64,000 nucleotides of DNA, taken from IMG/VR virus record IMGVR_UViG_3300045988_111421. The stretch is one strand, 5' to 3'. A program made the translations under genes and the position numbers. This stretch comes from a virus. Positions 1-44,392 of this stretch are shown piece by piece. The notes under the pieces are model-generated. The model was not told where the DNA came from. It worked only from the letters and a program-made list of their open reading frames with translations, and did not search any database. Position 1 is the first letter of the stretch. Every line of letters begins with the position of its first letter.

Positions 1-206
1 GATTTTCCAACAAAATTAAGACTTACAGCGTTTTAAAACAGCATAATGTAGGATTTTCCCACAAAATTAAGACTTACAGCGTTTTAAAACAGCATTTTGT
101 AGTTTCTACCAACAAAATTCAATAGATCAGCGTTTTAAAACAGCATAATGTAGGATTTTCCCACAAAATTAAGACTTACAGCGTTTTTAAAACAGTATTC
201 TGTAGG
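1..206. repeat. Four tandem direct repeats of ~51 bp (1-51, 52-103, 104-153, 154-206). Each carries the 10-bp perfect palindrome GTTTTAAAAC within ACAGCGTTTTAAAACAGCA. The array is probably truncated by the window edge.
   Basis: Direct reading. Units 1, 2 and 4 are near-identical (GATTTTCC[C/A]ACAAAATTAAGACTTACAGCGTTTTAAAACAGCAT..TGTAG). Unit 3 diverges in its 5' half but keeps the palindrome core. Confidence 0.85.
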
Positions 207-278
207 TAAGAGTTAAGGACTGCATTATGTGAGTATTTTTTTTCAATCGGAATGTATAACAATTAAAACATAAACAAC

Positions 279-539
279 ATGAACGTATATGACTTTGCGC
301 CTGACTTAGATTTGAGTAAGGAGGTAGAAGGTTCTATTTTCGGGGTAAAAGGAATAGAAGGCAGTGATGGAATAGTATATGCTAAGGTAGTTAGCTGTGT
401 AGACGTTAAGGATTACAGTTGTGATAGGTGTATTTTTTATGATTGTTATAAGGATAAATGTTTATTATCGCGTAGTGATAGTTGTATAGATGGAGATTGG
501 ATTTGTAGGTACGAACAGGCTGCCATAGAGGGGGAGTAG
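279..539 (+). CDS. Small Cys-rich protein (SCDRCIFYDCYKDKC motif). Paralog of 22580..22777.
   Basis: 86-aa ORF, first gene after the repeat array. Shares a CDRCIFxDxxxC block with ORF 22580..22777. Confidence 0.5.
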   Translation: MNVYDFAPDLDLSKEVEGSIFGVKGIEGSDGIVYAKVVSCVDVKDYSCDRCIFYDCYKDKCLLSRSDSCIDGDWICRYEQAAIEGE

Positions 540-645
540 GCGGCGCCTTGGGCTAAGGCCTGCGGTTGTAGGTGGAACGTAGGTCGGAGCAGAGCCGGAA
601 CAGTTTATTGTGGAACTAAAAAAATAAAAAGGAGGAGATAGCGAT

Positions 646-726
646 ATGAAAAAGGCATTTAAGATATTTTCTATTATGTTTGTCATAGAAATAGTGCTGA
701 TAGCTATTTTAGATGCTATGGCGTAA
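646..726 (+). CDS. Candidate 26-aa hydrophobic peptide (MKKAFKIFSIMFVIEIVLIAILDAMA).
   Basis: Strong SD AAAAGGAGGAG 8 nt upstream of the ATG. Single predicted TM helix. Below the ORF-track size cut-off. Sits between a GC-rich segment and the tRNA-like/hairpin block. Confidence 0.25.
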   Translation: MKKAFKIFSIMFVIEIVLIAILDAMA

Positions 727-851
727 GTGAGAAAAATTTCTTCATTAATTTTCTTATGCTTTAGACAGAATGCTCCCATCTGCGAAGATCGGAGCATTTG
801 CTTTATGGGATTCATGGTGCAGCAAGTCGGTTCGATTCCGGCGATCTCACA
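727..851 (+). ncRNA. tRNA-like/structured RNA candidate. It has a 5' GTGAGAA that can pair with the 3' ATCTCAC. It has an internal conserved-loop hairpin (769-798). It has a canonical T-arm-like GTCGG-TTCGATT-CCGGC followed by an acceptor-like 3' strand.
   Basis: GGTTCGATTCC T-loop consensus with a 5-bp stem seen directly. No D-arm or anticodon arm could be built by hand. The 3' block is shared with 2074-2108. Confidence 0.2.
769..798 (+). terminator. Conserved-loop hairpin H1: 8-bp stem AATGCTCC/GGAGCATT, loop CATCTGCGAAGATC.
   Basis: Inverted repeat read directly. The loop resembles those of H2-H5 (CTGYGARGAT). Confidence 0.4.
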
Positions 852-874
852 CAACATTAAAATAGGGAAGAACA

Positions 875-1278
875 TGTTAAAAGAAGAATTTGAAGAACTG
901 ATTAAAAGGGAGGTAAACGAAAATCAGTATAAAAACATAGAAACGGCATACGAGGCTTTGCCGGAGTATATGGATAAGATGTATTTAGCAAGTGCTATTT
1001 CAAATGATATTGGGAAAGCTATTAATGTCTTATCGTTTTTAGGATCGCATATAAGCGAGTTAATGGGTTCGATAATAATCGAAAGGCAAAAGGTGGAATC
1101 ATGTGCCTATGATTTAATAAACAAATCGCATGAGGAGGATGACTTGAAAGCAAGAGAGATTGCCGTGCGATTAATAGGAGAGAGGGAAACAGTGGCATAC
1201 ACAGTAAAAGAAGGGCTGCCATTGTGGGAACAAGATAAAAAGTTTATAATAGAATTAATAAAGGAGGATAGAAAATGA
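875..1278 (+). CDS. Hypothetical protein (134 aa from the internal ATG at 875).
   Basis: The ORF track gives 727..1278, but its 5' part overlaps the hairpin/tRNA-like block. MLKEEFEEL begins at 875. Confidence 0.5.
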
Positions 1279-1442
1279 AAGACGGTATTGTATTGCATCC
1301 AGAGCATGGGTTGAATCCATCCATAGAACTATGCATAGTATGCGGTGAAGAGATGGGGATTGCTTTATTAGGGAATAACATCAAAGGGCAGGCGCCGCAT
1401 CATATATGCACGGGAGAAATATGTGACAATTGCAAAAGATAA
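1275..1442 (+). CDS. Small Zn-ribbon protein (55 aa; CIVCGEE...HHICTGEICDNC).
   Basis: ATGA overlap with the upstream stop. GGAGGATAGAAA precedes the ATG. Two CxxC pairs. Below the track cut-off. Confidence 0.35.
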   Translation: MKDGIVLHPEHGLNPSIELCIVCGEEMGIALLGNNIKGQAPHHICTGEICDNCKR

Positions 1443-1621
1443 TAGATGACGGAGGTTGTTTTATTATCGAAGTTGAGGATGGATCAGATCAAAAGAATCC
1501 GTATCGTACAGGGAGATATTGCGCGATAAAGAAAGAAGCAGCAAAGAAAATACTTGGACAGGAGCATAGTATTGTGTACATGGAAAAGTCTGCGTACAGT
1601 CAAATAATACCACAAAAATAA
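1430..1621 (+). CDS. Hypothetical protein (63 aa).
   Basis: ORF in the compact + block. Confidence 0.35.
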   Translation: MQKIIDDGGCFIIEVEDGSDQKNPYRTGRYCAIKKEAAKKILGQEHSIVYMEKSAYSQIIPQK

Positions 1622-1629
1622 AGAAAGAT

Positions 1630-1944
1630 ATGTTTACAAAAGAAGAGCGATTATTCATATGGAAAAAGGTATATGAGATGATTGATAGGTTAGAGGATGG
1701 GGAATACATATGTGTTGCGTTAAGAAATGTAGTGTTTATGTATTTCAAAACACATAAAAATATCTATGAGTTTCGTTCAGACGAAATGGTGAGAATATAT
1801 TTCCCGGAATTGGAGGAGAAGATAAGTATGGCCACAGAACCAGAGGAAACAAGAACGTTTTATGGGTGGTTTGGTTGTCTTAGTCCAGAAACGAAGGAGG
1901 TAAGGCTGAATATTGTGAAAGATATTATAAAAGAATTAGAATAG
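1630..1944 (+). CDS. Hypothetical protein (104 aa).
   Basis: ORF followed by hairpin H2. Confidence 0.5.
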   Translation: MFTKEERLFIWKKVYEMIDRLEDGEYICVALRNVVFMYFKTHKNIYEFRSDEMVRIYFPELEEKISMATEPEETRTFYGWFGCLSPETKEVRLNIVKDIIKELE

Positions 1945-1990
1945 TATTTTTGTTAATCTATTTTATTCATCAAATTAAGTTTTGGGTTTT

Positions 1991-2020
1991 GGCATGTCGG
2001 TTCGTGAGGATAGGCATGCC
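1991..2020 (+). terminator. Conserved-loop hairpin H2: stem GGCATG/CATGCC, loop TCGGTTCGTGAGGATAG.
   Basis: Read directly. Lies downstream of 1630..1944. Confidence 0.4.
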
Positions 2021-2099
2021 TATTTCTGCATCATAGAGGGGATGACGCGGCGTGCCGGTGCGTATGTGCCGGTCCTGGTTCGATTCTGGGCATCTCACA
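2004..2099 (+). ncRNA. tRNA-like/structured RNA candidate. GTGAGGA in the H2 loop can pair with the 3' ATCTCAC. T-arm-like CCTGG-TTCGATT-CTGGG at 2074-2090.
   Basis: Shares the block GGTTCGATTCYGG..ATCTCACA(C)AACAAT(A/T)AAA with 826-858. No complete cloverleaf resolved. Confidence 0.2.
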
Positions 2100-2119
2100 A
2101 ACAATAAAACAAAAAAGTT

Positions 2120-2353
2120 ATGAGAATATATAAGAATGATATTATAAAGGCGTCAGCAATAAGCACCGGAGCCGACAGAGGCGTGTTGCCGTGTTCAATA
2201 ACAGATTCAGGCTTTACGTCTATAGCGGGCGTAATATCGGCTGTTAAGGATAGGTTACCAAACGAAGATCACAAGAAGATGGTTTTTGAAATCTTGAATG
2301 ATACGAAAAAAGAGTACGGAAGATATAATAATTGCGGAACAAAAGTATTGTAA
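2120..2353 (+). CDS. Hypothetical protein (77 aa).
   Basis: ORF. Confidence 0.45.
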   Translation: MRIYKNDIIKASAISTGADRGVLPCSITDSGFTSIAGVISAVKDRLPNEDHKKMVFEILNDTKKEYGRYNNCGTKVL

Positions 2354-2409
2354 TAAAGAGTAGAAAACAATATGTTTATGTAATATTAGTTTTTTTATTT
2401 TTATTGAAA

Positions 2410-2439
2410 GGAGCGCCGGCCTGTGAAGGTATGCGCTCT
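2410..2439 (+). terminator. Conserved-loop hairpin H3: stem GAGCGC/GCGCTC, loop CGGCCTGTGAAGGTAT, then TTTG.
   Basis: Read directly. Confidence 0.4.
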
Positions 2440-2472
2440 TTGTATTTGTATAATGCATAAAACAATAATAAT

Positions 2473-2727
2473 ATGACAGAGAATAGTATAGACGTAAATA
2501 TCGTACCTGTAAAGAATGGTATGAAACGTGTTGTGGTATCATATTACCATTATTCATGCAAGGAGAAAGATCGCATGAGTTCCCAAACGGATTACGTTTG
2601 GGAAACAAAGAATGAAGAAATGTTTAAATACTTTGAGGCCAGGAGGACAAAAGTATTTTATAGTCAGATTCGTGCCATGTGTAGATTCTATGGCAAGAAA
2701 AATGTACGTAAATACAAAAAGTTATGA
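2473..2727 (+). CDS. Hypothetical protein (84 aa).
   Basis: ORF with ATGA overlap to the next gene. Confidence 0.5.
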   Translation: MTENSIDVNIVPVKNGMKRVVVSYYHYSCKEKDRMSSQTDYVWETKNEEMFKYFEARRTKVFYSQIRAMCRFYGKKNVRKYKKL

Positions 2728-3533
2728 TATTAAAAACGACAACCAACGAGTTTTGTTTCATTAACGTAAGTTTCTACGAAACAATAGCAGATCCTCGTCA
2801 TTTCTTTGAACAGGATTATGAAGAGATGCCAGAATATGAGGAGGAATCGGATTTTGATTTTGATTCTTATTGCAATAAGTTTATTCCTTTTGTACAGGAA
2901 TGGGCGAATGAGGTAAGTGAACGCCTTTACGGATATGGCGTGAATAGTATAAAGGTAACATCGGTCGGATATCCGAAAGAATATAATTATGGTACTGATT
3001 GGATGAACGTAGAGGTAGAGTTTTGTGATGAATGGAGGCAAAAGATGTTATCTAACATTAGTAAGATTGTCAATGATGATAAATGCAAGAAGTATGCGGA
3101 GACTAATTACCGGTCGGTATCAGGATACATCTTTTTAGGACCTGAAGATTTAAAGGAATTTGAAAAGGAAATAATAGAAAGAAAGTCGGATTCCGGATAT
3201 GATGTAACAATATTATTAAATATGTATCTAACTTTGGCTTTTGTAAAAGAATTTGGATTTAAAGCCAGAGAAGCATGGAGTGAAATAACAGAATATGCTT
3301 ACGGATGTTTATCGTATTCCGATTTTGCAACAACAGAGATGCTTATACCGGAAGGTTCGGAGCATTTATTCAAAGACATTTACACGGCAAAGGCCGACGA
3401 ATTATATCATCATGTCCTGGATAAATTCGGATGGGCGTGGCGTGATCCGAAATATAAGTCAGAAACAGAATTATGCGCGATGCTAAAGTGGGCAAAAGAA
3501 AAAGGCTTGACCATTGAAGAGTTAAGTATTTAA
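2724..3533 (+). CDS. Hypothetical protein (269 aa).
   Basis: Long ORF. Confidence 0.6.
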   Translation: MILKTTTNEFCFINVSFYETIADPRHFFEQDYEEMPEYEEESDFDFDSYCNKFIPFVQEWANEVSERLYGYGVNSIKVTSVGYPKEYNYGTDWMNVEVEFCDEWRQKMLSNISKIVNDDKCKKYAETNYRSVSGYIFLGPEDLKEFEKEIIERKSDSGYDVTILLNMYLTLAFVKEFGFKAREAWSEITEYAYGCLSYSDFATTEMLIPEGSEHLFKDIYTAKADELYHHVLDKFGWAWRDPKYKSETELCAMLKWAKEKGLTIEELSI

Positions 3534-3546
3534 TTGTTAAACATAA

Positions 3547-3578
3547 GGCAGTAGTGGTGCGTGAGTATAGGTGCTGCC
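3547..3578 (+). terminator. Conserved-loop hairpin H4: stem GGCAG(T)/CTGCC, loop with GCGTGAGTATAG.
   Basis: Read directly. Confidence 0.35.
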
Positions 3579-3596
3579 GTTAAAATATTTTATAAG

Positions 3597-3845
3597 ATGA
3601 AAAAAGAAGAGATTCAAACTATTTTATACACAATCAAAGAAGGAGACAGTATTAAAATCAAAGTACAAGACAAAAGTGGAGAGATAAGACTGCGGGATCA
3701 TGTAAGAAGAGTACAGAAATACGGATACAGGTTTTGTTTGTCTCATTTACATGATGGAATTTTCTATCTGGAGAAGTTGAAAGAAGGGGATAAGGATAAA
3801 TACTATAGAGTAATAAACAGAGGAAATGGAAAGACCGGAGTATAA
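3597..3845 (+). CDS. Hypothetical protein (82 aa from the ATG at 3597).
   Basis: Track ORF 3561..3845 begins inside hairpin H4. The internal start MKKEEIQ is more plausible. Confidence 0.45.
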   Translation: MKKEEIQTILYTIKEGDSIKIKVQDKSGEIRLRDHVRRVQKYGYRFCLSHLHDGIFYLEKLKEGDKDKYYRVINRGNGKTGV

Positions 3846-4119
3846 TAAGCTACGCAAAATGGCTAAGACTACTCCAGGTCTGATAGTGGACGAGGTGCAA
3901 AACATGATGCGTGTATCGCTATACGATAATGGGGAACTTAAGAAGGTGGTAGTAGTAATGAAATGCGATTCTTTTTTACAGTCAAAAAGTAACATAGAAA
4001 AGATAATGTTATTATCATCTTCTATAGAAGATAGAAAAAACAAAGAAAAAAATAAAACAAAATCAGAAAATGAACAGAATAACAAAAATAAGAGAAGAAA
4101 TAGGAGGAGAACAGGTTGA
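3826..4119 (+). CDS. Hypothetical protein with a Lys/Asn-rich C-terminal tail (97 aa).
   Basis: ORF. Overlaps both neighbours. Confidence 0.3.
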   Translation: MERPEYNKLRKMAKTTPGLIVDEVQNMMRVSLYDNGELKKVVVVMKCDSFLQSKSNIEKIMLLSSSIEDRKNKEKNKTKSENEQNNKNKRRNRRRTG

Positions 4120-4453
4120 TTTGACCTTTTACGGGCGCTTTTGCAGCCTTATCGAAGGTGATAGGAAGATAATACTAAGGGCAATAAAAAACGGTCGTAA
4201 AAAAGGCGTAATCGGGGCCATTCAGCCTGGGAGACATGACAGAATTTGGACCACATGGTCTATTGCTTTTGATGATCTGAGGGTAGGGGATACGGTAGAG
4301 TTCAGTACATCTGGAAAATACAATCCCGGATTTCATGCTACGGAAAAGTATGTAGGGTGTGTAGAATGGATAAAAGGGTCGGAATGTGCGATAAAAACCG
4401 GTAAGGGAATAGCAGTAGTATTAATTAAACACATAGAAAGGGTGGTAAAATGA
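4070..4453 (+). CDS. Hypothetical protein (127 aa).
   Basis: ORF. Confidence 0.45.
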   Translation: MNRITKIREEIGGEQVDLTFYGRFCSLIEGDRKIILRAIKNGRKKGVIGAIQPGRHDRIWTTWSIAFDDLRVGDTVEFSTSGKYNPGFHATEKYVGCVEWIKGSECAIKTGKGIAVVLIKHIERVVK

Positions 4454-4734
4454 TGGGGTTGAGAGAATTTGTAGAACTTTTTGACAAGAATGAAGTAAAG
4501 AATTTGTTTAATGCATTGTCTTCATGTATAGAATACGTAAGGATAGATTTGCATGTATTTAATATAGGTGCTCATGTTGCGTGTCTGTACAGTAATGATC
4601 CTGAATTGCTTTCACAGGCAGAAGGTTGTAATGTAAATATGATAATAGAGGTACCCTACTTGTTTGAAGCATTTATGGAATACGCTTCACCGGAACTGAA
4701 AGCTTATTATGATGAACTAACAAAAGAAGTATGA
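4450..4734 (+). CDS. Hypothetical protein (94 aa).
   Basis: ATGA overlaps on both sides. Confidence 0.5.
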   Translation: MMGLREFVELFDKNEVKNLFNALSSCIEYVRIDLHVFNIGAHVACLYSNDPELLSQAEGCNVNMIIEVPYLFEAFMEYASPELKAYYDELTKEV

Positions 4735-5204
4735 AAGAGGAAGTAGAACGGATAAAGAAGTTGGTTGGCATAGATCATAATAGATGGGAGCAGCCTTGTT
4801 CATGTGATAAATGTAAGAACATGTGTAAGGTCCCTTGTATTGGTACGCCAAAAGACATAGAGGCTATCATAGATGCCGGATACGCTGACAGGTTAAAAGA
4901 AACAATGTGGATGGTCGGGTATCTTGCAGTGAAAGAAAAACCAATAGCGATGATCCGGCCAACAGAGAAAGACGGGTGGTGCGCATTCCGCCAGCCAGAC
5001 GGTCTCTGCGAGCTGCATGACCGTGGACTAAAGCCGACTGAAGGAGTTCTGGCTTCTTGTAAGGTGGTTGAAGAAGACGATATTCCAACATACGAGACAT
5101 CCGTACTTCGAGCAGTAGCTCATGAGTGGGTTAAGGTGGAGAACTTTGGAAATATAATGAAGGTCGTTTTTAAATTTTTGCATGAAAATGAACGTAGAAA
5201 ATAA
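4731..5204 (+). CDS. Hypothetical Cys-rich protein (157 aa; CSCDKCKNMCKVPC).
   Basis: ORF. Confidence 0.5.
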   Translation: MKEEVERIKKLVGIDHNRWEQPCSCDKCKNMCKVPCIGTPKDIEAIIDAGYADRLKETMWMVGYLAVKEKPIAMIRPTEKDGWCAFRQPDGLCELHDRGLKPTEGVLASCKVVEEDDIPTYETSVLRAVAHEWVKVENFGNIMKVVFKFLHENERRK

Positions 5205-5592
5205 ATTAGATAAAGTGGTTAATATCCTAAAAGAAAAAGGATTTGTAGTATATAGAAAGGGCGGGAAGGAGCCAGGTGTGTTTTACGCTAAAGAAGGTGA
5301 CAGCCGGATAGGATTCGTTTATCCCAACAACGGATATATATACGACAGGATAAAAATGTGGTCTTTTTCAAGGATATATAAACCACATAAGAAAACCGGG
5401 TCTTCGTGTTTAATGAGCGTCAGCGACGAATTTACGATAGAGAATGCGATTAAGAACATAGAGGATAGACTGTGGGTGAATTATATAAAAGATGGTAACA
5501 GAAAACGACCAGAAGAATATAAAAATATAAGAGAATTTGTTGGTAGCTTCACTAAATTCTACAACTCTGTAGAATTAGTTGAGGTTAAGTAG
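5182..5592 (+). CDS. Hypothetical protein (136 aa).
   Basis: ORF. Confidence 0.5.
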   Translation: MKMNVENKLDKVVNILKEKGFVVYRKGGKEPGVFYAKEGDSRIGFVYPNNGYIYDRIKMWSFSRIYKPHKKTGSSCLMSVSDEFTIENAIKNIEDRLWVNYIKDGNRKRPEEYKNIREFVGSFTKFYNSVELVEVK

Positions 5593-5613
5593 TTTTCCAT
5601 GCGAGTTAGTTGC

Positions 5614-5650
5614 CGGCACTGGTCTGTGAAGATAGGTGCCGTTTTTTTTT
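5614..5650 (+). terminator. Rho-independent-type terminator H5: stem CGGCAC/GTGCCG, loop TGGTCTGTGAAGATAG, followed by T9.
   Basis: GC stem plus T-run, read directly. Confidence 0.6.
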
Positions 5651-5671
5651 ATTCAAGAAAGGAGGACAAAG

Positions 5672-5923
5672 ATGGGAAAAAGAGACAAGAAGATACCTTA
5701 TGAGGTAGTCATACAGGAAAGAAAAAGAGTGGATTTATACGGTAACGTAGTGTATTATATCTATTGGTTTGATAAATATGGGTACAATATCACAAACGAA
5801 TGGAAATTCTGGAGCAAGGGTCCGAAAAAGAAATACGATAGAGTCAATCGTTATCTAACAGATAGTTGGTTGAAGGAATACTGTAAGAATAACAATTTAA
5901 AGATAAGTAGAATAAAGGAATGA
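5672..5923 (+). CDS. Hypothetical protein (83 aa from the ATG at 5672).
   Basis: AGGAGGACAAAG SD before MGKRDKK. The track ORF started inside the terminator. Confidence 0.5.
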   Translation: MGKRDKKIPYEVVIQERKRVDLYGNVVYYIYWFDKYGYNITNEWKFWSKGPKKKYDRVNRYLTDSWLKEYCKNNNLKISRIKE

Positions 5924-6435
5924 AAAAGATAAAAGTAGACAAAGTGATATTATATTACATGGATCGGGTAGACCCTGACGGGAACCTATACCGGTTCTAT
6001 GTATATAAAGACATGGCATCTGAAATAGAATACTTTTGCACGGAAGAGACAGGTAATATGACTATACCAATCGGAGAAGGAAAGTATATTGAAATCGTGC
6101 CAAGGGAAATAGTGAAAATACCGGTAAGGGGATATAGGAAGCTTACTGGAATATGGAATCGTGAAACATGTAACGGGAAGGGATGGTATAGGCTTTTTAA
6201 TTATTTCAAATACAAGCCGACCCTATGTTATTTTAAAAAAGCTGGACATGATGAAAATGGGAACACAAGATACGAAATATCATTATTTAATAGCATTATA
6301 AATGTGACAAGATATTTTAATCTGTGGAGAATGAAGCCAGGAAAGTATGTTATGGTAACAAACGAGTGTGGAGCCTTGGATGTTATAAAAGAAAAATTTG
6401 ACAACATAAATATAGTGGAATATGGATCTGAATGA
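5920..6435 (+). CDS. Hypothetical protein (171 aa).
   Basis: ORF. Confidence 0.55.
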   Translation: MKKIKVDKVILYYMDRVDPDGNLYRFYVYKDMASEIEYFCTEETGNMTIPIGEGKYIEIVPREIVKIPVRGYRKLTGIWNRETCNGKGWYRLFNYFKYKPTLCYFKKAGHDENGNTRYEISLFNSIINVTRYFNLWRMKPGKYVMVTNECGALDVIKEKFDNINIVEYGSE

Positions 6436-7066
6436 ATTGTACAAAGAAATAGAAAAAGCAGAGATTGATCTGAATGCAAAAAGATTAAAGTACATCAAAG
6501 AGGCATTAGTGGAGATAGAGAAGTGTGAAGGGCAATGGTGGGATGCGGTGACAGACAGAGCAAGAGAAGAATTGGAAAAAGAGGGAAATCCACTTTCTAA
6601 AATGGTACTGATTGGTGTTTCTTCAGTAGATAGATTATTGGATTGCTATGTGTATTATGGATTATGGGCATCCGAAAGTAAGATTGAAGAAATGATAGCT
6701 GACTACAAAGGTCGTATATATGAGTATTACGAATTTAAGGAAGAGGTCATTAATAAGATAAATGAGACCCTTAGAAAATCATATATTCAATCTTGGAAAG
6801 AACGGATAATACGATCTGGGATGAGACAGAAAGGGAAAGACGTGTTTGAATCACCGGATGGATTGTATATTGAGATGGTATATGAGAACAAAGCGTTTGT
6901 ACCATATAGACCTATAAAAGAAATCCAGGATTTACCTATAGATGCAAAGCACATACCGCTTCTTACAAGGATATTTGGAAAGAACATACTTGCGGAGATA
7001 GGAGGAGGTAAGATATTTATAACTACTGGAAAATATGCTGTGAATTTTTGGTGCTGGGAAAAGTAA
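6422..7066 (+). CDS. Hypothetical protein (214 aa).
   Basis: ORF. Confidence 0.55.
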   Translation: MDLNELYKEIEKAEIDLNAKRLKYIKEALVEIEKCEGQWWDAVTDRAREELEKEGNPLSKMVLIGVSSVDRLLDCYVYYGLWASESKIEEMIADYKGRIYEYYEFKEEVINKINETLRKSYIQSWKERIIRSGMRQKGKDVFESPDGLYIEMVYENKAFVPYRPIKEIQDLPIDAKHIPLLTRIFGKNILAEIGGGKIFITTGKYAVNFWCWEK

Positions 7067-7100
7067 ACATAATGTAAAAAGAAGATTAAAATAATAGCTT

Positions 7101-7415
7101 ATGACATTTCGAGAATTTATGCAGGAGAACGGCTATGACCTGATAACTACCTTTTGGGAAGATTTCAGCATAGCCGACAAGTATGGTATAGCAGGTGTCA
7201 AAGATACCTACAAACGTGCATTCAGTGAATGGAAAGGTAATTATAAGTTTTTCACGGAATTAACGCTCGTATTGAATCATAAAATCTGGCAACATTATAA
7301 AAGCAATCGCAAACTGGCTGCATTGTATGACCAGTTATGGCGAGAAGCCGACGAGTATGCCATGAACAATTTTAAGGGAGAAGAACTTGATTATTATTAC
7401 AGAATAACCGATTAG
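7101..7415 (+). CDS. Hypothetical protein (104 aa).
   Basis: ORF. Confidence 0.5.
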   Translation: MTFREFMQENGYDLITTFWEDFSIADKYGIAGVKDTYKRAFSEWKGNYKFFTELTLVLNHKIWQHYKSNRKLAALYDQLWREADEYAMNNFKGEELDYYYRITD

Positions 7416-7605
7416 CTATGTTATACCCGTTTTCATTGACGCTTGACTTATATATACAAGCCGAATCGTTTGAAGAAGCCAAGAAATTAGCGGAGCATAC
7501 GTTCAAGATGCTTCGTTAGATACGACTGACTATCCGGAAATAGTGCAGGATGTGTTGGAAGTGGCAGAGTATGGAATAATTGATATAGAATAACAAATTA
7601 ATATT

Positions 7606-7890
7606 ATGACAGCAGCAGAAAAATTGCGTATGGAAATAGCGCAAGAAATACCATTTAGTAAGGACGAATTTATTAGTAAAATCTCTCGTCTAATTAAGGC
7701 GTATGGATATGCAAGTTTTATTTGCGACAAGCATATTAGAGAAACCGATGTATCGCCTAACGATAACACGATCCGTATGGCACATGAACAAGTGGCAATT
7801 GATTTTGCTCGTTCTGAGGGTTTCTCGGTATCATATAAACATAACAGTTATGGTGTTAGATATATAGTATTCACTTTGTGTAAAATATAA
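7606..7890 (+). CDS. Hypothetical protein (94 aa).
   Basis: ORF. Confidence 0.5.
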   Translation: MTAAEKLRMEIAQEIPFSKDEFISKISRLIKAYGYASFICDKHIRETDVSPNDNTIRMAHEQVAIDFARSEGFSVSYKHNSYGVRYIVFTLCKI

Positions 7891-7894
7891 AGAC

Positions 7895-8695
7895 ATGGAA
7901 GACAGACTTATTACAACAAAAGAAGTAGGGAATTATCGTATAAAAATATACTATAATACTGACATGGAATGTCCTTGTAAAAGTTGGGATATGGCAGCAT
8001 GTTTCTTATGGGAATATAGCGATTCATACCAACTGCAAGATGTGTGCGATTGGAGAGAAGTATTTGGTAAATACGGAGATAGTCGACACTCGCTTATAGA
8101 TGCACTACATAAACTTATTAGTAAATATGTTGAATGGAAAGACTTGCTGAATTATTTTAAGAAAGGCAAGATTGACGGTTATCAACTGAGATATGATAAC
8201 CATGATAAAATGTGGTATTATAAAGAAATTTTTAGCATTTCTCCATCAGATCTTTACACGTATGATTATACGTATGAATTTATAGAAGACTTAGGATGTG
8301 AAGAATTGATTCAGATTCTTTCAGACTTAGGCAAAGATATATTTGTCAAAGAATGGTCCACAACAGGATACAGTCAAGGGGATTATGTTAAAGGTATAGC
8401 TTTCTGTACAAAGGAGAGGTACACAAAAATGGTTAGTAATAATACTTCCGATTGGAAAACCCAAATTGACAAATTGATTGATGATGAAGTGAAATCCATA
8501 GGTATGTGGATGTGGGGAGATGTAAAAGGGTACGTTCTTGAAAAGAAGGTAGCATTTACCAAGAAATACAAAGACGAATCAAGAGAGGATGAAGATTGCG
8601 AAGAATGGGAAGAGGTTGATTCTTGCTGGGGATGTTACGAGGAGACAGATGAATTGATAAAGGAAGTCATGATAGAGAATGGCTTAGAAGAATAG
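7895..8695 (+). CDS. Hypothetical protein (266 aa).
   Basis: ORF. Confidence 0.6.
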   Translation: MEDRLITTKEVGNYRIKIYYNTDMECPCKSWDMAACFLWEYSDSYQLQDVCDWREVFGKYGDSRHSLIDALHKLISKYVEWKDLLNYFKKGKIDGYQLRYDNHDKMWYYKEIFSISPSDLYTYDYTYEFIEDLGCEELIQILSDLGKDIFVKEWSTTGYSQGDYVKGIAFCTKERYTKMVSNNTSDWKTQIDKLIDDEVKSIGMWMWGDVKGYVLEKKVAFTKKYKDESREDEDCEEWEEVDSCWGCYEETDELIKEVMIENGLEE

Positions 8696-8805
8696 GTTGT
8701 AATGGCTGATAGTGACGGACGCCGCAGGAGACAGGTGGGTAAAGCGCGAAGAGTTCCGGTTCAGAGGAGACGCGGCCTGCTCTGCGTGGCGTAATGCTAC
8801 AGTAG
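8696..8805 (+). other. GC-rich (~60-65%) intergenic island. It contains a 30-aa Arg-rich ORF (8702..8794, MADSDGRRRRQVGKARRVPVQRRRGLLCVA). It is also a possible structured RNA.
   Basis: Composition contrasts sharply with the flanking AT-rich DNA. ORF read directly. Confidence 0.3.
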
Positions 8806-9351
8806 ATGAAATTGTTGAACATTTTAAAAACAGATAATTATGGGATATATATATGTACAAGATGTGGTGGAACAAATGTTGTCTGTGAAGCCATAGTAAA
8901 TCCGAATACTGGAAAAATAATAGATTATCTTGATGAATCTTTCATGCATGCTATTTGCTCGAATTGTGAAAACGAGGTGATAATATCCAACATTGAAGGA
9001 GTCAAACATGAAATTGATTTAAGGTTTCATGAATTTGTAGAAAAAACAGGTAAGGAGCCCAAATACGAAGAAAAAGAAGATGATTATTTTCCATTCTCAT
9101 CTGCAAGTATAGTAGCATACGAGTACAAACTACTCTATCATGAGAAATTCTTCGAACATCTTCATATGAAGAGGCTGGTTATTGACGAAAATATCCCTTT
9201 TCCAGTAAGTACATGGGAGCGCTCATATCGGTATAAAGGATATGGTTACAATATGTGCCGGGAGACAAAGAAAAAACTTCTACAGGCTATTAAAGGTGTA
9301 AACGTAGAGGAGGAAGATGTATCTTTGTACACTACTGGAGGATGGGATTAA
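8806..9351 (+). CDS. Zn-ribbon protein (181 aa; CTRCGG...CSNCENE).
   Basis: Two CxxC pairs near the N-terminus. Confidence 0.55.
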   Translation: MKLLNILKTDNYGIYICTRCGGTNVVCEAIVNPNTGKIIDYLDESFMHAICSNCENEVIISNIEGVKHEIDLRFHEFVEKTGKEPKYEEKEDDYFPFSSASIVAYEYKLLYHEKFFEHLHMKRLVIDENIPFPVSTWERSYRYKGYGYNMCRETKKKLLQAIKGVNVEEEDVSLYTTGGWD

Positions 9352-9809
9352 CCTATAAAACAAAATTGCTTATGAAAACATTAGAACAACTTAAAGAATT
9401 AGCATCAAAATGTTTAGACGGTAGAGATTTTAACAGACTGGCTAAATTTATCCCATATAACATGATAAAGGATTTCGGTATGGAGCCGAACGAAGAATAC
9501 AATAACGAAGAAAGGTGGAACAGTACTGTAGTTGAATTTACCAGGGAGAATGTTTTGAAACAGCTTGAAGAAGATGTAAGATTCGGTTTTGAAAAGGCAT
9601 TAAATCAGAGAGGGATATCAGCCAGTTTAATGTTTGAATGTGTGATGATGTGGAACTACATCCTGGAAGAAGGTCTTGAAGACTGGGATGAGGATGATTA
9701 TGGATTTTACGGGCTACCTCTATTTAAAGCTACGGCTGTAAAATACGGATGGGATAATCCTATAGGGGAAGACAGCGGGAGAGAAAGAAAATATGATTCA
9801 CAGTATTAA
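9342..9809 (+). CDS. Hypothetical protein (155 aa).
   Basis: ORF. Confidence 0.5.
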   Translation: MGLTYKTKLLMKTLEQLKELASKCLDGRDFNRLAKFIPYNMIKDFGMEPNEEYNNEERWNSTVVEFTRENVLKQLEEDVRFGFEKALNQRGISASLMFECVMMWNYILEEGLEDWDEDDYGFYGLPLFKATAVKYGWDNPIGEDSGRERKYDSQY

Positions 9810-9820
9810 ATAGGCATATC

Positions 9821-10675
9821 ATGAGCACAAGTAAAGAATACAAGGCAGTAAGGAACTACATACTAAATGAACTTCATCTTACCAAAGAAGATATAATCAA
9901 AAACATAGAACCGTTATTGGAGAAACACGTAAAACGGTACATGGTTAATACATATGGAGGTGACAATCAGATAGAAAACTGGATCAGATGCATGGTGAAT
10001 GATGAACTCAAACAAAGAGATCATGATTTTGTAAGAAGAGCGTGCGAGAATGTCATCAGGAATCATGTATTAAATGAATTGAATATAATCGTAAGATCCA
10101 AAAGTGAGAAATGTACATGTGAAAACAGAGTACCATCCGAAGAGGATAAGAAAGAGTCAACTGACGGACTGTATATAATCTACGAAGACGGACATGCAGA
10201 GCCGTTTACCGGCGATAACTCCAAAGATTGTGTACGATACATCGGGTTGAGGCACAGATACATGTCATTTGCAATCTCACTGACGGAGCATGATATCGTA
10301 CAATTGCTTGACGATGATAGCCGTGAAGAATCCGGAAGTGGGACATATTACGAACGTGAATGTGATGCGCTGTTTGACATTGACGGACGCGGCAATACGG
10401 AACGCCTTGTAGCCAGAAATCCAAAATTGAGAAATCTGCTGGAAGATGGCGAGTATATACCATCTCTTGGTCAATTAAATTTAATGGCCCATTATATGAA
10501 CGAACTAAACAAAGCATTCGCTTATGTTTCGGCATCTCCCCTCTCCTCGACGTGGTATTGGTCCAGTACTGAGAGCAGCCAGGCCGTCGCGTGGTACGTG
10601 GTCTTCTCCAGTGGCCTCACGGGCACCGGCAACAAGCACATCGGAGACATGGTTCGGGCGGTAATTGATTTTTAA
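9821..10675 (+). CDS. Hypothetical protein (284 aa) with a GC-rich 3' segment.
   Basis: ORF. Confidence 0.55.
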   Translation: MSTSKEYKAVRNYILNELHLTKEDIIKNIEPLLEKHVKRYMVNTYGGDNQIENWIRCMVNDELKQRDHDFVRRACENVIRNHVLNELNIIVRSKSEKCTCENRVPSEEDKKESTDGLYIIYEDGHAEPFTGDNSKDCVRYIGLRHRYMSFAISLTEHDIVQLLDDDSREESGSGTYYERECDALFDIDGRGNTERLVARNPKLRNLLEDGEYIPSLGQLNLMAHYMNELNKAFAYVSASPLSSTWYWSSTESSQAVAWYVVFSSGLTGTGNKHIGDMVRAVIDF

Positions 10676-10686
10676 AAAGGATTACA

Positions 10687-11484
10687 ATGATAACATCGGT
10701 AAAAATAAAAGACAATACAAAAACTCCATTTGAATATGCTTCGGACATAGAAGCGTTTGAAAATAGTAGAGAATTTATTTTCAAGCCAGGAGTGAATGTA
10801 ATTATAGGTAAAAACGGTAGTGGAAAATCAACTTTGCTTAACATCATATCAATGTATGCGTTATGCGAGAAGTCCATGTGCTCTGAAATGCCGGCTGAGG
10901 CGCTGGATTTTCCACCTATATTTGATGATGATGACAAGGTTCTTGATGGGATTGACATATCATCCGATTATGCAGGGAAAGTATTCCGTTTATTGCCATC
11001 GGCGGAGATGAATCGAGATAGTGTATTGAAAAACATCAGCAACTTAGATTTGTATGTGAATAATATTAGAAGATCTTATGGAGAGAAAGTGGTGTTATCA
11101 TTGGAATCACTTTTCAATTTAATGTTCGGTCAAAAGGATTATACGTTTCCAATACAAGATCTTGTAGAATACAAGAAAAAATCAAATGCGTTTTGGATTA
11201 AAAGGATTGATAATCTGTTGAAGTATTATAAAAGAAACCGCATAACATTAGCAGAAAGCAGTTTTGAATACACGGTTCTCATGGATGAGCCAGACAGGAA
11301 TCTTGACATTGACAATATAATGCAAATTTATAATGTATTATCATTCCATAAACCACAAACACAAATTATAGCCATAATACACAATCCGGCATTGATTTAC
11401 AAATTAAGCAAATTAGATTGTGTGAATTTCATAGAGATGACAGAAGGATATCTTAGTAAAACTTGTATATTTATGTCCAATTAA
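10687..11484 (+). CDS. P-loop ATPase, ABC/AAA_15-AAA_21-like (265 aa).
   Basis: The N-terminus (IKDNTKTPFEY..VNVIIGKNGSGKSTLLNIIS) is typical of RecF/OLD/SMC-like ABC ATPases. Walker B VLMDEPDRNLD present. Confidence 0.55.
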   Translation: MITSVKIKDNTKTPFEYASDIEAFENSREFIFKPGVNVIIGKNGSGKSTLLNIISMYALCEKSMCSEMPAEALDFPPIFDDDDKVLDGIDISSDYAGKVFRLLPSAEMNRDSVLKNISNLDLYVNNIRRSYGEKVVLSLESLFNLMFGQKDYTFPIQDLVEYKKKSNAFWIKRIDNLLKYYKRNRITLAESSFEYTVLMDEPDRNLDIDNIMQIYNVLSFHKPQTQIIAIIHNPALIYKLSKLDCVNFIEMTEGYLSKTCIFMSN

Positions 11485-11496
11485 ATATTTTCAACA

Positions 11497-11880
11497 ATGA
11501 GCTATTTTGTATTAATGGGGAGAAGAATCCCAAAGCAGGCTATAACAGGCTTTAAGTTCCAAAATGAAACAGATAATATTTGTCCTTTCCTGTCAATCAG
11601 GATAAGAGGGAAGGAGGAAATTATACCTTTCAAAGATAAAAAGGAGATACAGCCTGTAAAAGCGCATCTGTGTTCTGTCTTCTCCGGATTTGTGAAAATA
11701 GGCGACTGGTATCTCAAGATGTCGGAAGTTAAGGAATATAAGCCGGTGACCGCCGAAGACATGAACCCCTACATCTTGTTTAAGACATCTAAGTTCGGAA
11801 ACATAAAAGTTCGTTTCCCGAAAGATGAAGATATGGATGCCGAATTATTGGTGTTAGATCAGCTTTTTGATGTAGAATAA
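11497..11880 (+). CDS. Hypothetical protein (127 aa), immediately downstream of the ATPase.
   Basis: ORF 12 nt after the ATPase stop. Confidence 0.5.
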   Translation: MSYFVLMGRRIPKQAITGFKFQNETDNICPFLSIRIRGKEEIIPFKDKKEIQPVKAHLCSVFSGFVKIGDWYLKMSEVKEYKPVTAEDMNPYILFKTSKFGNIKVRFPKDEDMDAELLVLDQLFDVE

Positions 11881-11919
11881 ACTATTAATCATCTTTTGAA
11901 AATCATGACTTGGAAATAA

Positions 11920-12189
11920 TTGAAAGACAAAATATCTCTTATGACAGAAGAAGAGCAACGACAAGAAGTTGCAGTATGGGGAGAAAATATGAATCTAATG
12001 AAAGATTGTTCCTTGGAGAAAACAGACGAGGATATGTACTACAACTCTGAATGGGATTATACTTGTGAAGAGAGTGAACTTGTGAAGAGAGTGAATTGGA
12101 ACCGGAAGACAAGAATGACCCTGATGTACATAAGGTATATGAAGCAGGAATGTATTATATTTATTCGAATTGATTTTAAAAAGATCTGA
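11920..12189 (+). CDS. Hypothetical protein (89 aa).
   Basis: ORF. Confidence 0.35.
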   Translation: MKDKISLMTEEEQRQEVAVWGENMNLMKDCSLEKTDEDMYYNSEWDYTCEESELVKRVNWNRKTRMTLMYIRYMKQECIIFIRIDFKKI

Positions 12190-12191
12190 TT

Positions 12192-12761
12192 ATGGCAGCA
12201 TTAACAACACTAAATATAACGGAAAAGAACGCTAATAACAGTTTGTCTGTAACTGTTAAAGTGAATGTCACCAAAGAAGGAGTGTTTACCACTACCTTGT
12301 CAAAAGAAGATGTGGACAAGATTCATTCTTATGGGATCAAATTACCTACAAACAGATTAGGCAACGAAGGATATTTCAATAGTATAGCACTTTCTGATTT
12401 GGAAAGTCAAATCAGGGAAGTTCTGAAGAGATGTTTGAGTTATAAAATAGTAGAAGAAGTGCCTGTTATTAAGTATCAACTGGAAACGAATTGCACGTTT
12501 TCATATGACAAAAACGGAAATATTGTCCCTAACCCCTCTAAGGAATGGACAGGAGGCGATGAAAATGGAGAATGGAGGGATGGAACTTCCCGTTTAGATG
12601 CCTTAAACGCCCAACCTTTCGGTTTTAGTGTTTATGCAAAACCATTTCTAAAAAGAGTAATTGAATATGGAAATGGAGAGACAAAAGTAGAATACAGCAG
12701 GTTAAATACAGAAAAAGGAACCTATGCGCACTGGCTGAATTGTGTAACAATTAAAAATTAA
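12192..12761 (+). CDS. Hypothetical protein (189 aa).
   Basis: ORF. Confidence 0.55.
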   Translation: MAALTTLNITEKNANNSLSVTVKVNVTKEGVFTTTLSKEDVDKIHSYGIKLPTNRLGNEGYFNSIALSDLESQIREVLKRCLSYKIVEEVPVIKYQLETNCTFSYDKNGNIVPNPSKEWTGGDENGEWRDGTSRLDALNAQPFGFSVYAKPFLKRVIEYGNGETKVEYSRLNTEKGTYAHWLNCVTIKN

Positions 12762-12947
12762 AAATAATTGAGTGAACAGTTTGCAAAAATCAGTACGAAT
12801 GCGTTGTTAGGATTATCAACATCCGCCACATAAGAACCATCTAATCCCGTAAATATCGTGATGCGTTGGTAGTATGTGTACAGATAGCAAGCAGGCGTTG
12901 GGATAAAGCATTTGGCAAACATTCACTCTAAATAAGAAATAGTAGAT

Positions 12948-13403
12948 ATGAATACAGAATTTGAAAACATGGCTTTGCTGAATATAGAAGACTACAATGA
13001 GCTTAAAGCTAAAGCCGAAGCAACAGATGAACAGATAAAGAAACAAGCCGAAGAAATGGCTAAGCCTGAAGTTGTCACATTGAAAGTACGTTTTTATACA
13101 TACGGAGTATCATACAATCCATATACTTGTGTTGATGTTGAGATACCATTCTATGATGATAAAAAAATCAGAGATATGCTTAACAAAGCAAGTGCTGATA
13201 TAATGAAATGGTGTGACAAAAATATGGAAAAATACAACAAAGAACTCAAAGAATCCAGATCTACAAAAAAACATTGCGAAGGGCTAAGAAAGCATATCGC
13301 AAATCTCGAAAGGCGCCTCTTAAAGCATATATTGGCAAACGTTATTTTATCTATTATATCAGTTGCGACTATAATTGCCCTTTTCACATTAATTCAAAAC
13401 TAA
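12948..13403 (+). CDS. Coiled-coil protein with a C-terminal TM anchor (151 aa).
   Basis: C-terminus ILANVILSIISVATIIALFTLIQN is hydrophobic. Confidence 0.5.
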   Translation: MNTEFENMALLNIEDYNELKAKAEATDEQIKKQAEEMAKPEVVTLKVRFYTYGVSYNPYTCVDVEIPFYDDKKIRDMLNKASADIMKWCDKNMEKYNKELKESRSTKKHCEGLRKHIANLERRLLKHILANVILSIISVATIIALFTLIQN

Positions 13404-13409
13404 ATAGAC

Positions 13410-13670
13410 ATGGAACAAGAATATGCTATTCCTCTTTTTAAAGCTGGTGCAGAGTGGCGCATTAACAGCGTGTGGCATTCTATAACAGTAATTCCAGATT
13501 GCCACCGTTTTATTGTGTTTCTCCCTAAGAAATCAACAATAGGATCAAAGAATCCAATTATGGGTATATTGGAAGAGAACAAAACTTTTATATCCAGCCG
13601 TCCAGGATGTATTTTATGCAGATTAGATGAAATGGAATCATGGGCTTATTTGGATGATCTATTACCTTAG
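13410..13670 (+). CDS. Hypothetical protein (86 aa).
   Basis: ORF. Confidence 0.45.
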   Translation: MEQEYAIPLFKAGAEWRINSVWHSITVIPDCHRFIVFLPKKSTIGSKNPIMGILEENKTFISSRPGCILCRLDEMESWAYLDDLLP

Positions 13671-13743
13671 GTAATTATATACTCAATTTTAAAAGTTAGA
13701 ATTATGAAAAAAATATTTAACAGACAAAGAAAAAGAGGAAAGA

Positions 13744-13953
13744 ATGAATTACCTTACCATTCATAAATGTAAAAACGAGGATGAACGTAAAGAGTTAAAA
13801 GAATTATGTGATTGGTATTTTAAGGATACTCCTGTGTTAACTATGTCTTTTTCTTTAACAGAAGAAGATCTTCGGGTAACAATGGAAAGGGACGTGGAGT
13901 TGTCGGCGGTAGCCGGAGCGGTAAAGAATCAACACCATAAGAAGAAAATTTGA
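13744..13953 (+). CDS. Hypothetical protein (69 aa).
   Basis: ORF. It is separated from the next same-frame ORF by a single TGA plus 2 codons. Confidence 0.4.
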   Translation: MNYLTIHKCKNEDERKELKELCDWYFKDTPVLTMSFSLTEEDLRVTMERDVELSAVAGAVKNQHHKKKI

Positions 13954-13959
13954 AAGGTT

Positions 13960-14175
13960 ATGACCGACAGAGAACTTCTTGAAGAAAACAATAAGATGTT
14001 AAAGGAAATTCTAAGTTTTGTGAGAAAAGTTGATTCTGCTGAATACAGGGATCATCAAGACTTTATGGAATTTCTTAGAAATGTAGCAGCCGATATATGG
14101 GTGGAATATACGGAGCCCGAACAAAGAGGTAGATTGTTTAATTTAATGAATAAAAGAAATGAAAACAGTTTTTGA
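13960..14175 (+). CDS. Hypothetical protein (71 aa).
   Basis: ORF. Confidence 0.4.
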   Translation: MTDRELLEENNKMLKEILSFVRKVDSAEYRDHQDFMEFLRNVAADIWVEYTEPEQRGRLFNLMNKRNENSF

Positions 14176-14821
14176 TTTAAGCAGAGATGAGATTGTGGCA
14201 TTGACAGACGAAGAGATAAGTCTGTATATAGACAAAGAGCTTGCTGGTAAGGGTATTCCAATTGAAGCTAAAAATTGGAATATAAAGAACGAAAAGGAAG
14301 TTGTGTACCCGGATTGCGGGGTTCCGATATTTGTTATTAAAGACATAGGTGTAGGATTTAGAAAGATAGAGGACGCTACAGAGGTGGTGAATTTACTGGT
14401 CAGGTCCAGGGCTTTTAAGGTGGGTTCAAAGTATTTAAACCGATCTTATGAGAGGTTAAACGTCATAAACGAGGGCGTCGTGCCGGCAGTAGAGGGTTGC
14501 GTAGGATACACCAATGAAGAATTTGAAAGAGTTAACAAAGAAAACAATGATCCTGAATCAGCAAAAATAGGATCATTTAATAAGACAGTAGAGGAAGCCA
14601 ACAACATAAGAAGCCGAGTGTTGAAATACGTGGACAAGATAAAACAGGAGCGTGCGTACAACATCGACCTTTGCATGACTTTCGAGAGATATATTGAGAT
14701 AGCAGATAAAGATGCGGAGCGGGCTATGGCTTTCTTGAAAGAAGCCTACCCGTTTAATGAAGAAACAGAAGTCTTTATCAGGAAAAGATACAATATGTCT
14801 ATCGATGTTAACCCAGAATAA
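14159..14821 (+). CDS. Hypothetical protein (220 aa).
   Basis: ORF. Confidence 0.55.
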   Translation: MKTVFDLSRDEIVALTDEEISLYIDKELAGKGIPIEAKNWNIKNEKEVVYPDCGVPIFVIKDIGVGFRKIEDATEVVNLLVRSRAFKVGSKYLNRSYERLNVINEGVVPAVEGCVGYTNEEFERVNKENNDPESAKIGSFNKTVEEANNIRSRVLKYVDKIKQERAYNIDLCMTFERYIEIADKDAERAMAFLKEAYPFNEETEVFIRKRYNMSIDVNPE

Positions 14822-14895
14822 AATTAATTTATATTAAATCATTTTGTTTCTTATTAAGCAACAAAAGACATATCTTTGTCCGAAAAATAAGAAAC

Positions 14896-44332: not shown

Positions 44333-44392
44333 AGTAAAACATTTTTGTTATGAGACAAAGGTAGTTAAAAATCAAGCATATCATAGAAAATA

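Follow-up and report, generated by a model that had tools for sequence, protein, structure and literature searches.

We analysed a stretch of 64,000 nt of viral DNA (IMG/VR record IMGVR_UViG_3300045988_111421; this whole stretch is called the window below), which opens with a tandem repeat array directly ahead of a block of small genes. Tandem Repeats Finder, applied to the 64-kb window, delimits the array at 1-206 with a period of 51, 4.0 copies, 81% matches and a score of 289. When read directly, the array consists of units of 51, 51, 51 and 52 bp placed head-to-tail at window 1-205, with units 1, 2 and 4 being near-identical and unit 3 differing in its middle segment. The features of the locus, all coordinates being those of the window, are as follows.

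Repeat unit 1: 1-51, plus strand; GATTTTCCAACAAAATTAAGACTTACAGCGTTTTAAAACAGCATAATGTAG, the array being cut here by the window start.
Repeat unit 2: 52-102, plus strand.
Repeat unit 3: 103-153, plus strand; its middle segment is of the alternative kind, TTCAATAGATCAG, one of two unit types that are common among relatives.
Repeat unit 4: 154-205, plus strand; 52 bp, gene-proximal, with GTTTTTAAAAC and CAGTATTCTGTAG.
Module A: 7-19, 58-70, 109-121 and 160-172, plus strand; CCAACAAAATTAA, one of the two conserved blocks of the unit.
Module B: 26-51, 77-102, 128-153 and 179-205, plus strand; CAGCGTTTTAAAACAGCATAATGTAG, containing a 10-bp palindrome and the conserved tail ..AT..TGTAG(G).
Palindrome GTTTTAAAAC: 30-39, 81-90 and 132-141; perfect in three units.
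Counterpart of the palindrome in unit 4: 183-193; imperfect, GTTTTTAAAAC.
Decayed unit remnant: 206-235, plus strand; GTAAGAGTTAAGGACTGCATTATGTGAGTA, keeping TTAAG...GCATTATGTGAG without the TTTAAAAC core.
T8 run: 236-243, plus strand; 7-11 T in relatives and absent in some clades.
Leader: 244-278, plus strand; 35 nt, conserved, A-rich, CAATCGGAATGTATAACAATTAAAACATAAACAAC, running to the ATG of ORF1 at 279.
ORF1: 279-539, plus strand; 86 aa, Cys-rich, the first gene of the block.
Putative early block: 279-14870, plus strand; tightly packed small genes.

A preliminary description of this DNA had reported a tandem array of four units of about 51 bp, and both Tandem Repeats Finder and direct reading bear this out. 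However, that description extended the array over 1-278, whereas the repeat stops at 205/206, and positions 206-278 are made up of the decayed unit (which reads TTAAGGACTGCATTATGTGAG, its core being absent), the T8 run and the leader. The palindrome that it placed in each unit is perfect in three of them only, unit 4 having GTTTTTAAAAC instead, and the sequence said to be preserved in the divergent unit has to be corrected, since unit 3 keeps TCAGCGTTTTAAAACAGCA and not ACAGCG.... On the other hand, its view of the array as a regularly phased, cis-acting element at the head of the early-gene block agrees with our results, as does its suspicion that the array extends past the window start: in all relatives whose locus is complete, the array starts directly behind a GC-rich block ending in GGGCAC, which is missing from the window, and the four units are therefore a lower bound. 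The 16-mer CAGCGTTTTAAAACAG occurs three times in the window against 0.07 expected, always inside the array, and no other repeat family in the 64-kb window is like the array unit. On its gene-proximal side the array is adjoined by an AT-rich stretch (the T8 run and the leader, 236-278), and on its other side, in relatives, by the GC-rich block.

ORF1 is a conserved protein of a narrow family (520 homologues, all at least 61% identical) with no Pfam or PHROG family match, and its AlphaFold model is all-beta, with a disordered Cys-rich part and a mean pLDDT of 66. We considered ORF1 as a protein binding the array and set this aside, given the missing family match and the mean pLDDT of its model. 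The ten ORFs scanned at 874-5592 match, like ORF1, no Pfam family, a pattern that early host-takeover genes typically show. Several early genes are preceded by a strong Shine-Dalgarno-like GGAGG (631-637, 1262-1267 and ~5655-5661), which is unusual for a phage of a Bacteroidota host, and in relatives the conserved GC-rich block ahead of the array likewise contains GGAGGAT. A 26-aa hydrophobic ORF (MKKAFKIFSIMFVIEIVLIAILDAMA, 646-726), again with a strong GGAGG upstream, lies between ORF1 and the first of two intergenic elements (~820-850 and ~2077-2100) that end in the tRNA T-arm-like sequence GGTTCGATTC(C/T)GG..ATCTCACA; these elements receive no ARAGORN or Rfam call and may be tRNA remnants or processing signals of the early transcript. 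The leader (255-273, TATAACAATTAAAACATAA) resembles ATTAACAATTAAAACTAA, found just before two early genes of Cellulophaga phage phi14:2 (L126 1959-1976 and 2171-2188), and the two may share a translation-start context.

Positions 2-6000 of the window are 95% identical to crAssE-Sib (GenBank name csAssE-Sib, OR575929), an epsilon crAss-like phage from the human gut with a genome of 151,256 bp, which was reported by Babkin et al. in 2024 (PMC11054128). The circular map of crAssE-Sib shows one long co-directional block from a divergence point at 17.4 kb to the late block at 110.8 kb, in which replication and nucleotide-metabolism genes and tRNAs are followed by the junction of record start and end, then by the array, then by about 45 small hypothetical genes, and finally by the genes for a primase, a DnaB-like helicase and other replication proteins. 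The window is the reverse complement of this region, starting within the array, and its GC skew flips at ~36 kb, the point at which the late block and the early/replication block run into each other.

In IMG/VR, a pattern scan yielded about 100 contigs with the array, to which a scan anchored on the start of ORF1 added about 40. Nearly all of these ~140 related contigs come from human-gut viromes, many being 140-155 kb long, and the position and orientation of the array are constant among them, in the order GC-rich block, array, leader and ORF1. The GC-rich block is conserved and ends in a variable polypurine run, (GGGAGA)n GGGCAC. This microsatellite (L001 600-640 in crAssE-Sib, with an equivalent in ~56 loci) stands directly before the first unit, varies in length among genomes, and could form triplex or G-rich structures. 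At loci bracketed on both sides, a set that took in those with at least two cores, there are 2 units at 25 loci, 3 at 16, 4 at 4, 5 at 4, 6 at 2, 8 at 1 and 9 at 1; the ORF1-anchored scan, which is unbiased in this respect, added single-unit arrays (L273, L262), so that the overall range is 1 to at least 9. An intact core beside the leader is lacking in contig L268, and in some genomes the core is mutated in every unit, as in L271 (TTTAAGAC) and L285 (TTTAAAGC). Even so, almost all of the related contigs examined retain at least one full unit or remnant at this position, and the final unit in many of them is the same as unit 4 of the window. The start-to-start period is 50 bp in 24 cases, 51 in 76 and 52 in 19, indicating that the array is non-coding and helically phased. 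Expansions of part of a unit (20-22 or ~29 bp) are frequent, with their joints in the two A-runs of the unit, many hybrid sub-repeats meet at AAAA microhomology, and in some relatives module A is amplified alone with a period of 20-22 bp. The most distant context that we found, in a relative with an ORF1 61% identical, has no such array. The array is one more example of the variable tandem arrays familiar from phage regulatory regions; it is mentioned neither in the crAssE-Sib paper (PMC11054128) nor in the survey by Yutin et al. (PMC7886860).

About one third of the related contigs begin or end within the array, as the window does, and one relative contig of 150 kb has an exact terminal overlap of 99 bp that lies wholly within it. 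Since tandem repeats break these assemblies, a sequence end inside the array does not amount to a physical genome end. The scenario of a terminal-repeat artefact, raised in the preliminary description, accordingly holds for the end position, which the 99-bp overlap marks as an artefact of assembly, but not for the array itself, which is genuine genomic DNA flanked by unique sequence on both sides in at least 53 contigs. A second variable array, unrelated to it, lies 2.8 kb upstream of the first and outside the window (L002 ~2060-2180 in crAssE-Sib record coordinates, minus relative to the record; units of ~29-33 bp, GTTTATGTGATGRGAGAKATGAGAAAGAT). A terminator-like hairpin precedes this second array, a polypurine run and a conserved GC-rich block follow it, and at least seven contigs of IMG/VR have an end within it. 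Both arrays are recurrent breakpoints in metagenomic assemblies of these phages and can yield false terminal repeats, and the copy number of the first could serve as a strain marker. The genome start of crAssE-Sib itself was set by PhageTerm with p = 1.5e-22 (PMC11054128), and this published start lies ~640 bp upstream of the array. Just inside it, ATTGGTCTAAAACGAAACT occurs twice, 72 bp apart (L001 ~25-45 and 97-117), and these copies are candidate end-recognition sequences. One 3.9-kb fragment of this phage group (L221, NZ_DXLG01000138.1) is binned in a Veillonella MAG, which is probably a binning error and not evidence of host. A pattern scan of genome contigs for host or episome context was uninformative on the host, the pattern being so loose that it returned chance matches and this fragment.

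A logo of 152 distinct units shows two conserved blocks, module A (T.CC.ACAAAATT.A) and module B (CAG.G(T)TTTAAAACAG(C/T)AT..TGTAG(G)), separated by a variable segment of 6-8 nt that is of a few types. Conserved within the unit are CCAACAAAATT and TTTAAAACAG.AT..TGTAGG, and both blocks persist across unit types with differing middle segments. The palindrome, which the preliminary description had stressed, does not have this standing. Among 154 tail-anchored distinct units, the perfect form GTTTTAAAAC is present in 79 (51%) and TTTAAA in 146, so that the palindrome is not the constrained feature; GTTTTTAAAAC, GCTTTAAAAC, GTTTAAAAC and TTTAAGAC are common variants, and some genomes have it mutated in every unit. 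Its loss in about half of the units weakens the reading of the array as the target of a dimeric regulator, as these 154 units do not share the conserved dyad-symmetric site that would be expected in each unit of such an operator array. In addition, no DNA-binding regulator family is encoded near the array, among ten upstream proteins and ten downstream ORFs scanned, and no unit match that could be a further operator occurs elsewhere in the genome, including the surroundings of the annotated repressor. The flanks in the set of relatives are 86-100% identical, and the conservation of the unit is not clearly above this level, so selection on the unit sequence is not demonstrated.

The preliminary description had also proposed to look for the same unit elsewhere, and we found none in the window or in the 151-kb relative. 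Likewise, weight matrices for modules A and B returned nothing above shuffled controls elsewhere in these two sequences, which makes the array a single-locus cis element. We rejected a dispersed regulon or promoter consensus on these null matrices and on the finding that no word of at least 9 nt from window 1-278 recurs in the other gaps of the early block. A coding repeat was rejected as well: a frame is open across two units, yet the 50 and 52 bp periods exclude a conserved frame. The 40-aa hypothetical protein WOZ57410.1 annotated in GenBank (L001 588-710 of crAssE-Sib), which spans the GC-rich block and the first unit, is probably a spurious CDS, given the variation of the period between 50 and 52 bp among relatives. 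An RNA element found no support either, since there is no Rfam match and no long-range covariation in the 152 units, mutual information between unit columns being confined to neighbouring positions. The GC-rich upstream block shows no significant structure on either strand (z +0.5 and +0.8).

We then considered the transcription signals around the array. In crAssE-Sib, two terminator-like hairpins (L001 141-170 and 463-485) lie 170-500 bp upstream of it, and the downstream block therefore needs a start signal of its own within ~380 bp, most of which is filled by the array, the dominant conserved non-coding element there. The most enriched 8-mers in upstream intergenic DNA are TATCTTTG and TATATTTG, at ~20-fold. 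A -7 box of the Bacteroidota sigma-A type (TAnnTTTG) is found within 70 nt of the start codon in 26 of 65 gaps elsewhere in the genome, but in none of 12 gaps within the 20 kb that follow the array (Fisher p = 0.004); no such box occurs on the sense strand of window 1-278, and the first strong one in the plus direction of the window is TATCTTTG at 14871-14878. Intergenic -7 boxes facing their downstream gene, mostly TATCTTTG, occur at 14871 and 20527 on the plus strand and at 44356, 48274, 51799, 52104, 54515 and 54949 on the minus strand, and in the crAssE-Sib relative they often stand 14-18 nt before the start codon. That the phage makes use of Bacteroidota-type -7 boxes elsewhere in its genome is clear, and these boxes point to a Bacteroidota host and to the use of host polymerase for middle and late genes.

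Since the downstream block needs a start signal, no host-type signal is found there, and the array is the dominant element with a fixed orientation and distance to ORF1, we read the array as a slippage-amplified control module, that is, a promoter and/or an operator, of the early operon. This is the reading that we tentatively prefer, although we rate its probability as somewhat below even: that transcription starts or is controlled at the array, and by which agent, is what we infer from the layout of the locus. In this model, the blocks CCAACAAAATT and CAG.G(T)TTTAAAACAG.AT..TGTAGG would most likely be bound by whichever polymerase or factor initiates or gates early transcription. The units all point towards the early genes, and the period of 50-52 bp, about five helical turns, would set them on one face of the helix. 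The conserved tail of the unit, ..CTGTAGG or ..TATAGG, can be read as having the form of a start site initiating at GG. Slippage during replication between the short A-runs of the unit would add and remove units and part-units; one unit with the decayed proximal copy would suffice, and extra copies may be tolerated or may raise output. The recogniser is probably not the plain host holoenzyme, because sense sigma-A signals are absent from the units and from the 20 kb downstream; it may be brought or made by the phage, for example the proposed virion RNA polymerase or an early factor. Several observations count against this reading: the units match no known promoter class in the sense direction; the unit is unique in the genome and hence not a reused promoter consensus, with neither module scoring above chance elsewhere in the window; the relative with an ORF1 61% identical lacks the array; the conservation of the unit is not clearly above that of its flanks; and a virion RNA polymerase could not be confirmed in this phage.

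The more specific proposal, that the 51-bp unit is an early promoter or loading site for a phage-delivered transcription machine in epsilon crAss-like phages, seems to us rather improbable as it stands. According to Yutin et al. (PMC7886860), epsilon phages lack the transcription gene block, and a virion RNA polymerase was suggested for an epsilon phage by a weak HHpred match (Babkin et al., PMC11054128). In the window, such a polymerase went undetected both by motif in the large ORFs, where three complete frames of more than 700 aa and one cut by the window end contain no D.D.D-type motif, and by a PDB search with the two largest ORFs, which have no sequence match. If true, the proposal would give the first sequence-defined early promoter in Crassvirales and would turn copy number into a rapidly evolving dial on the dosage of early genes. 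Epsilon crAss-like phages, which are still uncultured, abound in the human gut, and a unique, conserved and recognisable module ahead of the early block offers a concrete piece of DNA for binding, transcription and reporter assays.

Among the rival readings, a functionless minisatellite fares best, although we still regard it as unlikely. In this case, the early leader region would have been duplicated by slippage, and the copies would drift and turn over without being used. The extreme plasticity of the array fits this well, with its single-unit arrays, the mutated cores throughout L271 and L285, the lack of an intact core in L268 and the AAAA-joined hybrids, as do the decay of units at the edge, a unit conservation not above that of the flanks, the absence of the array from the distant relative, and the presence of a second variable array nearby. 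However, a full unit or remnant persists at a constant position in all but a few of the related contigs examined, the period stays within 50-52 bp, and both conserved blocks are retained across unit types whose middles differ.

A reading of the array as an iteron-type replication origin, which the preliminary description had offered, is less probable than not by a wide measure. Here, the units or module A would bind an initiator, and the T-run and the AT-rich leader would melt and load the phage DnaB-like helicase and the host polymerase. Several features agree with this: the direct repeats are phased, module A alone reaches the usual iteron size of 20-22 bp in several genomes, the array is flanked by an AT-rich stretch and, opposite to it, by a GC-rich block, and there is one locus per genome. 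Moreover, epsilon phages have no DNA polymerase gene of their own and need to recruit the replication of the host (PMC11054128, PMC7886860). The module A variants TTTCCCACA and ATTTCCACA fit the DnaA-box consensus TTWTNCACA at 8 of 9 positions, but the commonest variant, CCAACA (73%), makes a poor DnaA box; we therefore rejected DnaA boxes and IHF sites in the unit, as only some variants resemble the consensus and the majority variant does not. The cumulative GC skew of the 151-kb relative is lowest at 17 kb and highest at 110 kb, where the coding strand switches, and runs straight through the array without a turn. Copy number varies from 1 to at least 9 with frequent sub-unit rearrangements, and an origin does not need a fixed orientation and distance to ORF1. 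Finally, no Rep, O or DnaA-like initiator was recognised beside the array or in the replication module, which lies at a distance of 16-22 kb: when the flanking ORFs and this module were scanned against Pfam and PHROG, they gave primase-like, DnaB-like helicase, exonuclease-like and AAA ATPase proteins and no known initiator family.

A packaging or genome-end element, in which the small terminase subunit, or a protein of ejection or end processing, would be bound by the array close to a physical terminus, has in our view a small chance of being correct. The PhageTerm start of crAssE-Sib is close, there is one locus per genome, and repeated binding boxes are typical of pac/cos regions, lambda cosB and SPP1 pacL/pacR being examples. 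However, 640 bp is far from the cut in comparison with known pac/cos sites, the putative terminase genes are ~20 kb off, and the terminus class is not stated in PMC11054128. The contig ends in the array are explained by assembly, given that the second array also ends at least seven contigs and that one contig overlaps itself by 99 bp. The weakest rival, leftward host-type promoters sending transcripts towards the GC-rich block and the genome end, is very improbable: module A on the minus strand reads TAATTTTG, a perfect Bacteroidota -7 box present in window 1-278 at 11, 62 and 164 and of the type that is the main promoter signal of the phage elsewhere, but half of all units read GAATTTTG (position -14: A 50%, C 50%), there is no TTTG at the -33 distance, no plausible minus-strand gene is seen upstream when the sequence is read by eye, and neither strand of the GC-rich block shows significant structure.

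Returning to the array as a control module of the early operon, we compared it with known systems. The crAss-like phage phi14:2 belongs to a related virus order and also has a block of small early genes at its left end; its virion-polymerase early transcripts are reported to have no common upstream motif (bioRxiv 10.1101/2020.03.07.982082), so that they provide nothing known with which to compare the array, and no comparable array is found in the first 9 kb of phi14:2. In the case of phage N4, the likeness would be that of early promoters for an injected polymerase near one genome end. The N4 virion-RNA-polymerase promoters are dispersed stable hairpins with a stem of 5-7 bp and a loop of 3 nt. 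Hairpin promoters of this kind were rejected for the array, as the folding of five units on both strands gives between -2.9 and -4.1 kcal/mol as the minimum free energy, with z-scores from -0.45 to -1.35, no better than shuffles. The sopC locus of the F plasmid has 12 tandem 43-bp repeats, each with an inverted repeat, and resembles the array in its tandem repeats of ~40-50 bp with a short palindrome in each and in a copy number that is not critical. However, only about one unit in two of the array keeps its palindrome, persistence of the phage in plasmid form is not known, and a Pfam scan of ten proteins encoded in the 8 kb upstream, including an annotated coiled-coil ATPase, detected no ParA/ParB family. 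With iteron origins (lambda ori; the P1, RK2 and F plasmid origins) the array shares phased direct repeats beside an AT-rich stretch at a single locus and, in some relatives, sub-repeats of 20-22 bp, but its unit is 51 bp and not 17-22 bp, its copy number is not conserved, and it has neither an initiator gene nearby nor a skew signal. The early promoters A1, A2 and A3 of phage T7 are ordinary host sigma-70 promoters, fixed in number and ~125 bp apart, that lie ~500-750 bp from the leading end of the genome. The array differs from them in that its units are placed head-to-tail every 51 bp, number from 1 to at least 9, and have no sense-direction match to the Bacteroidota consensus; it resembles them in consisting of like-oriented modules within the first kilobase of a predicted genome end, directly before the small early genes.
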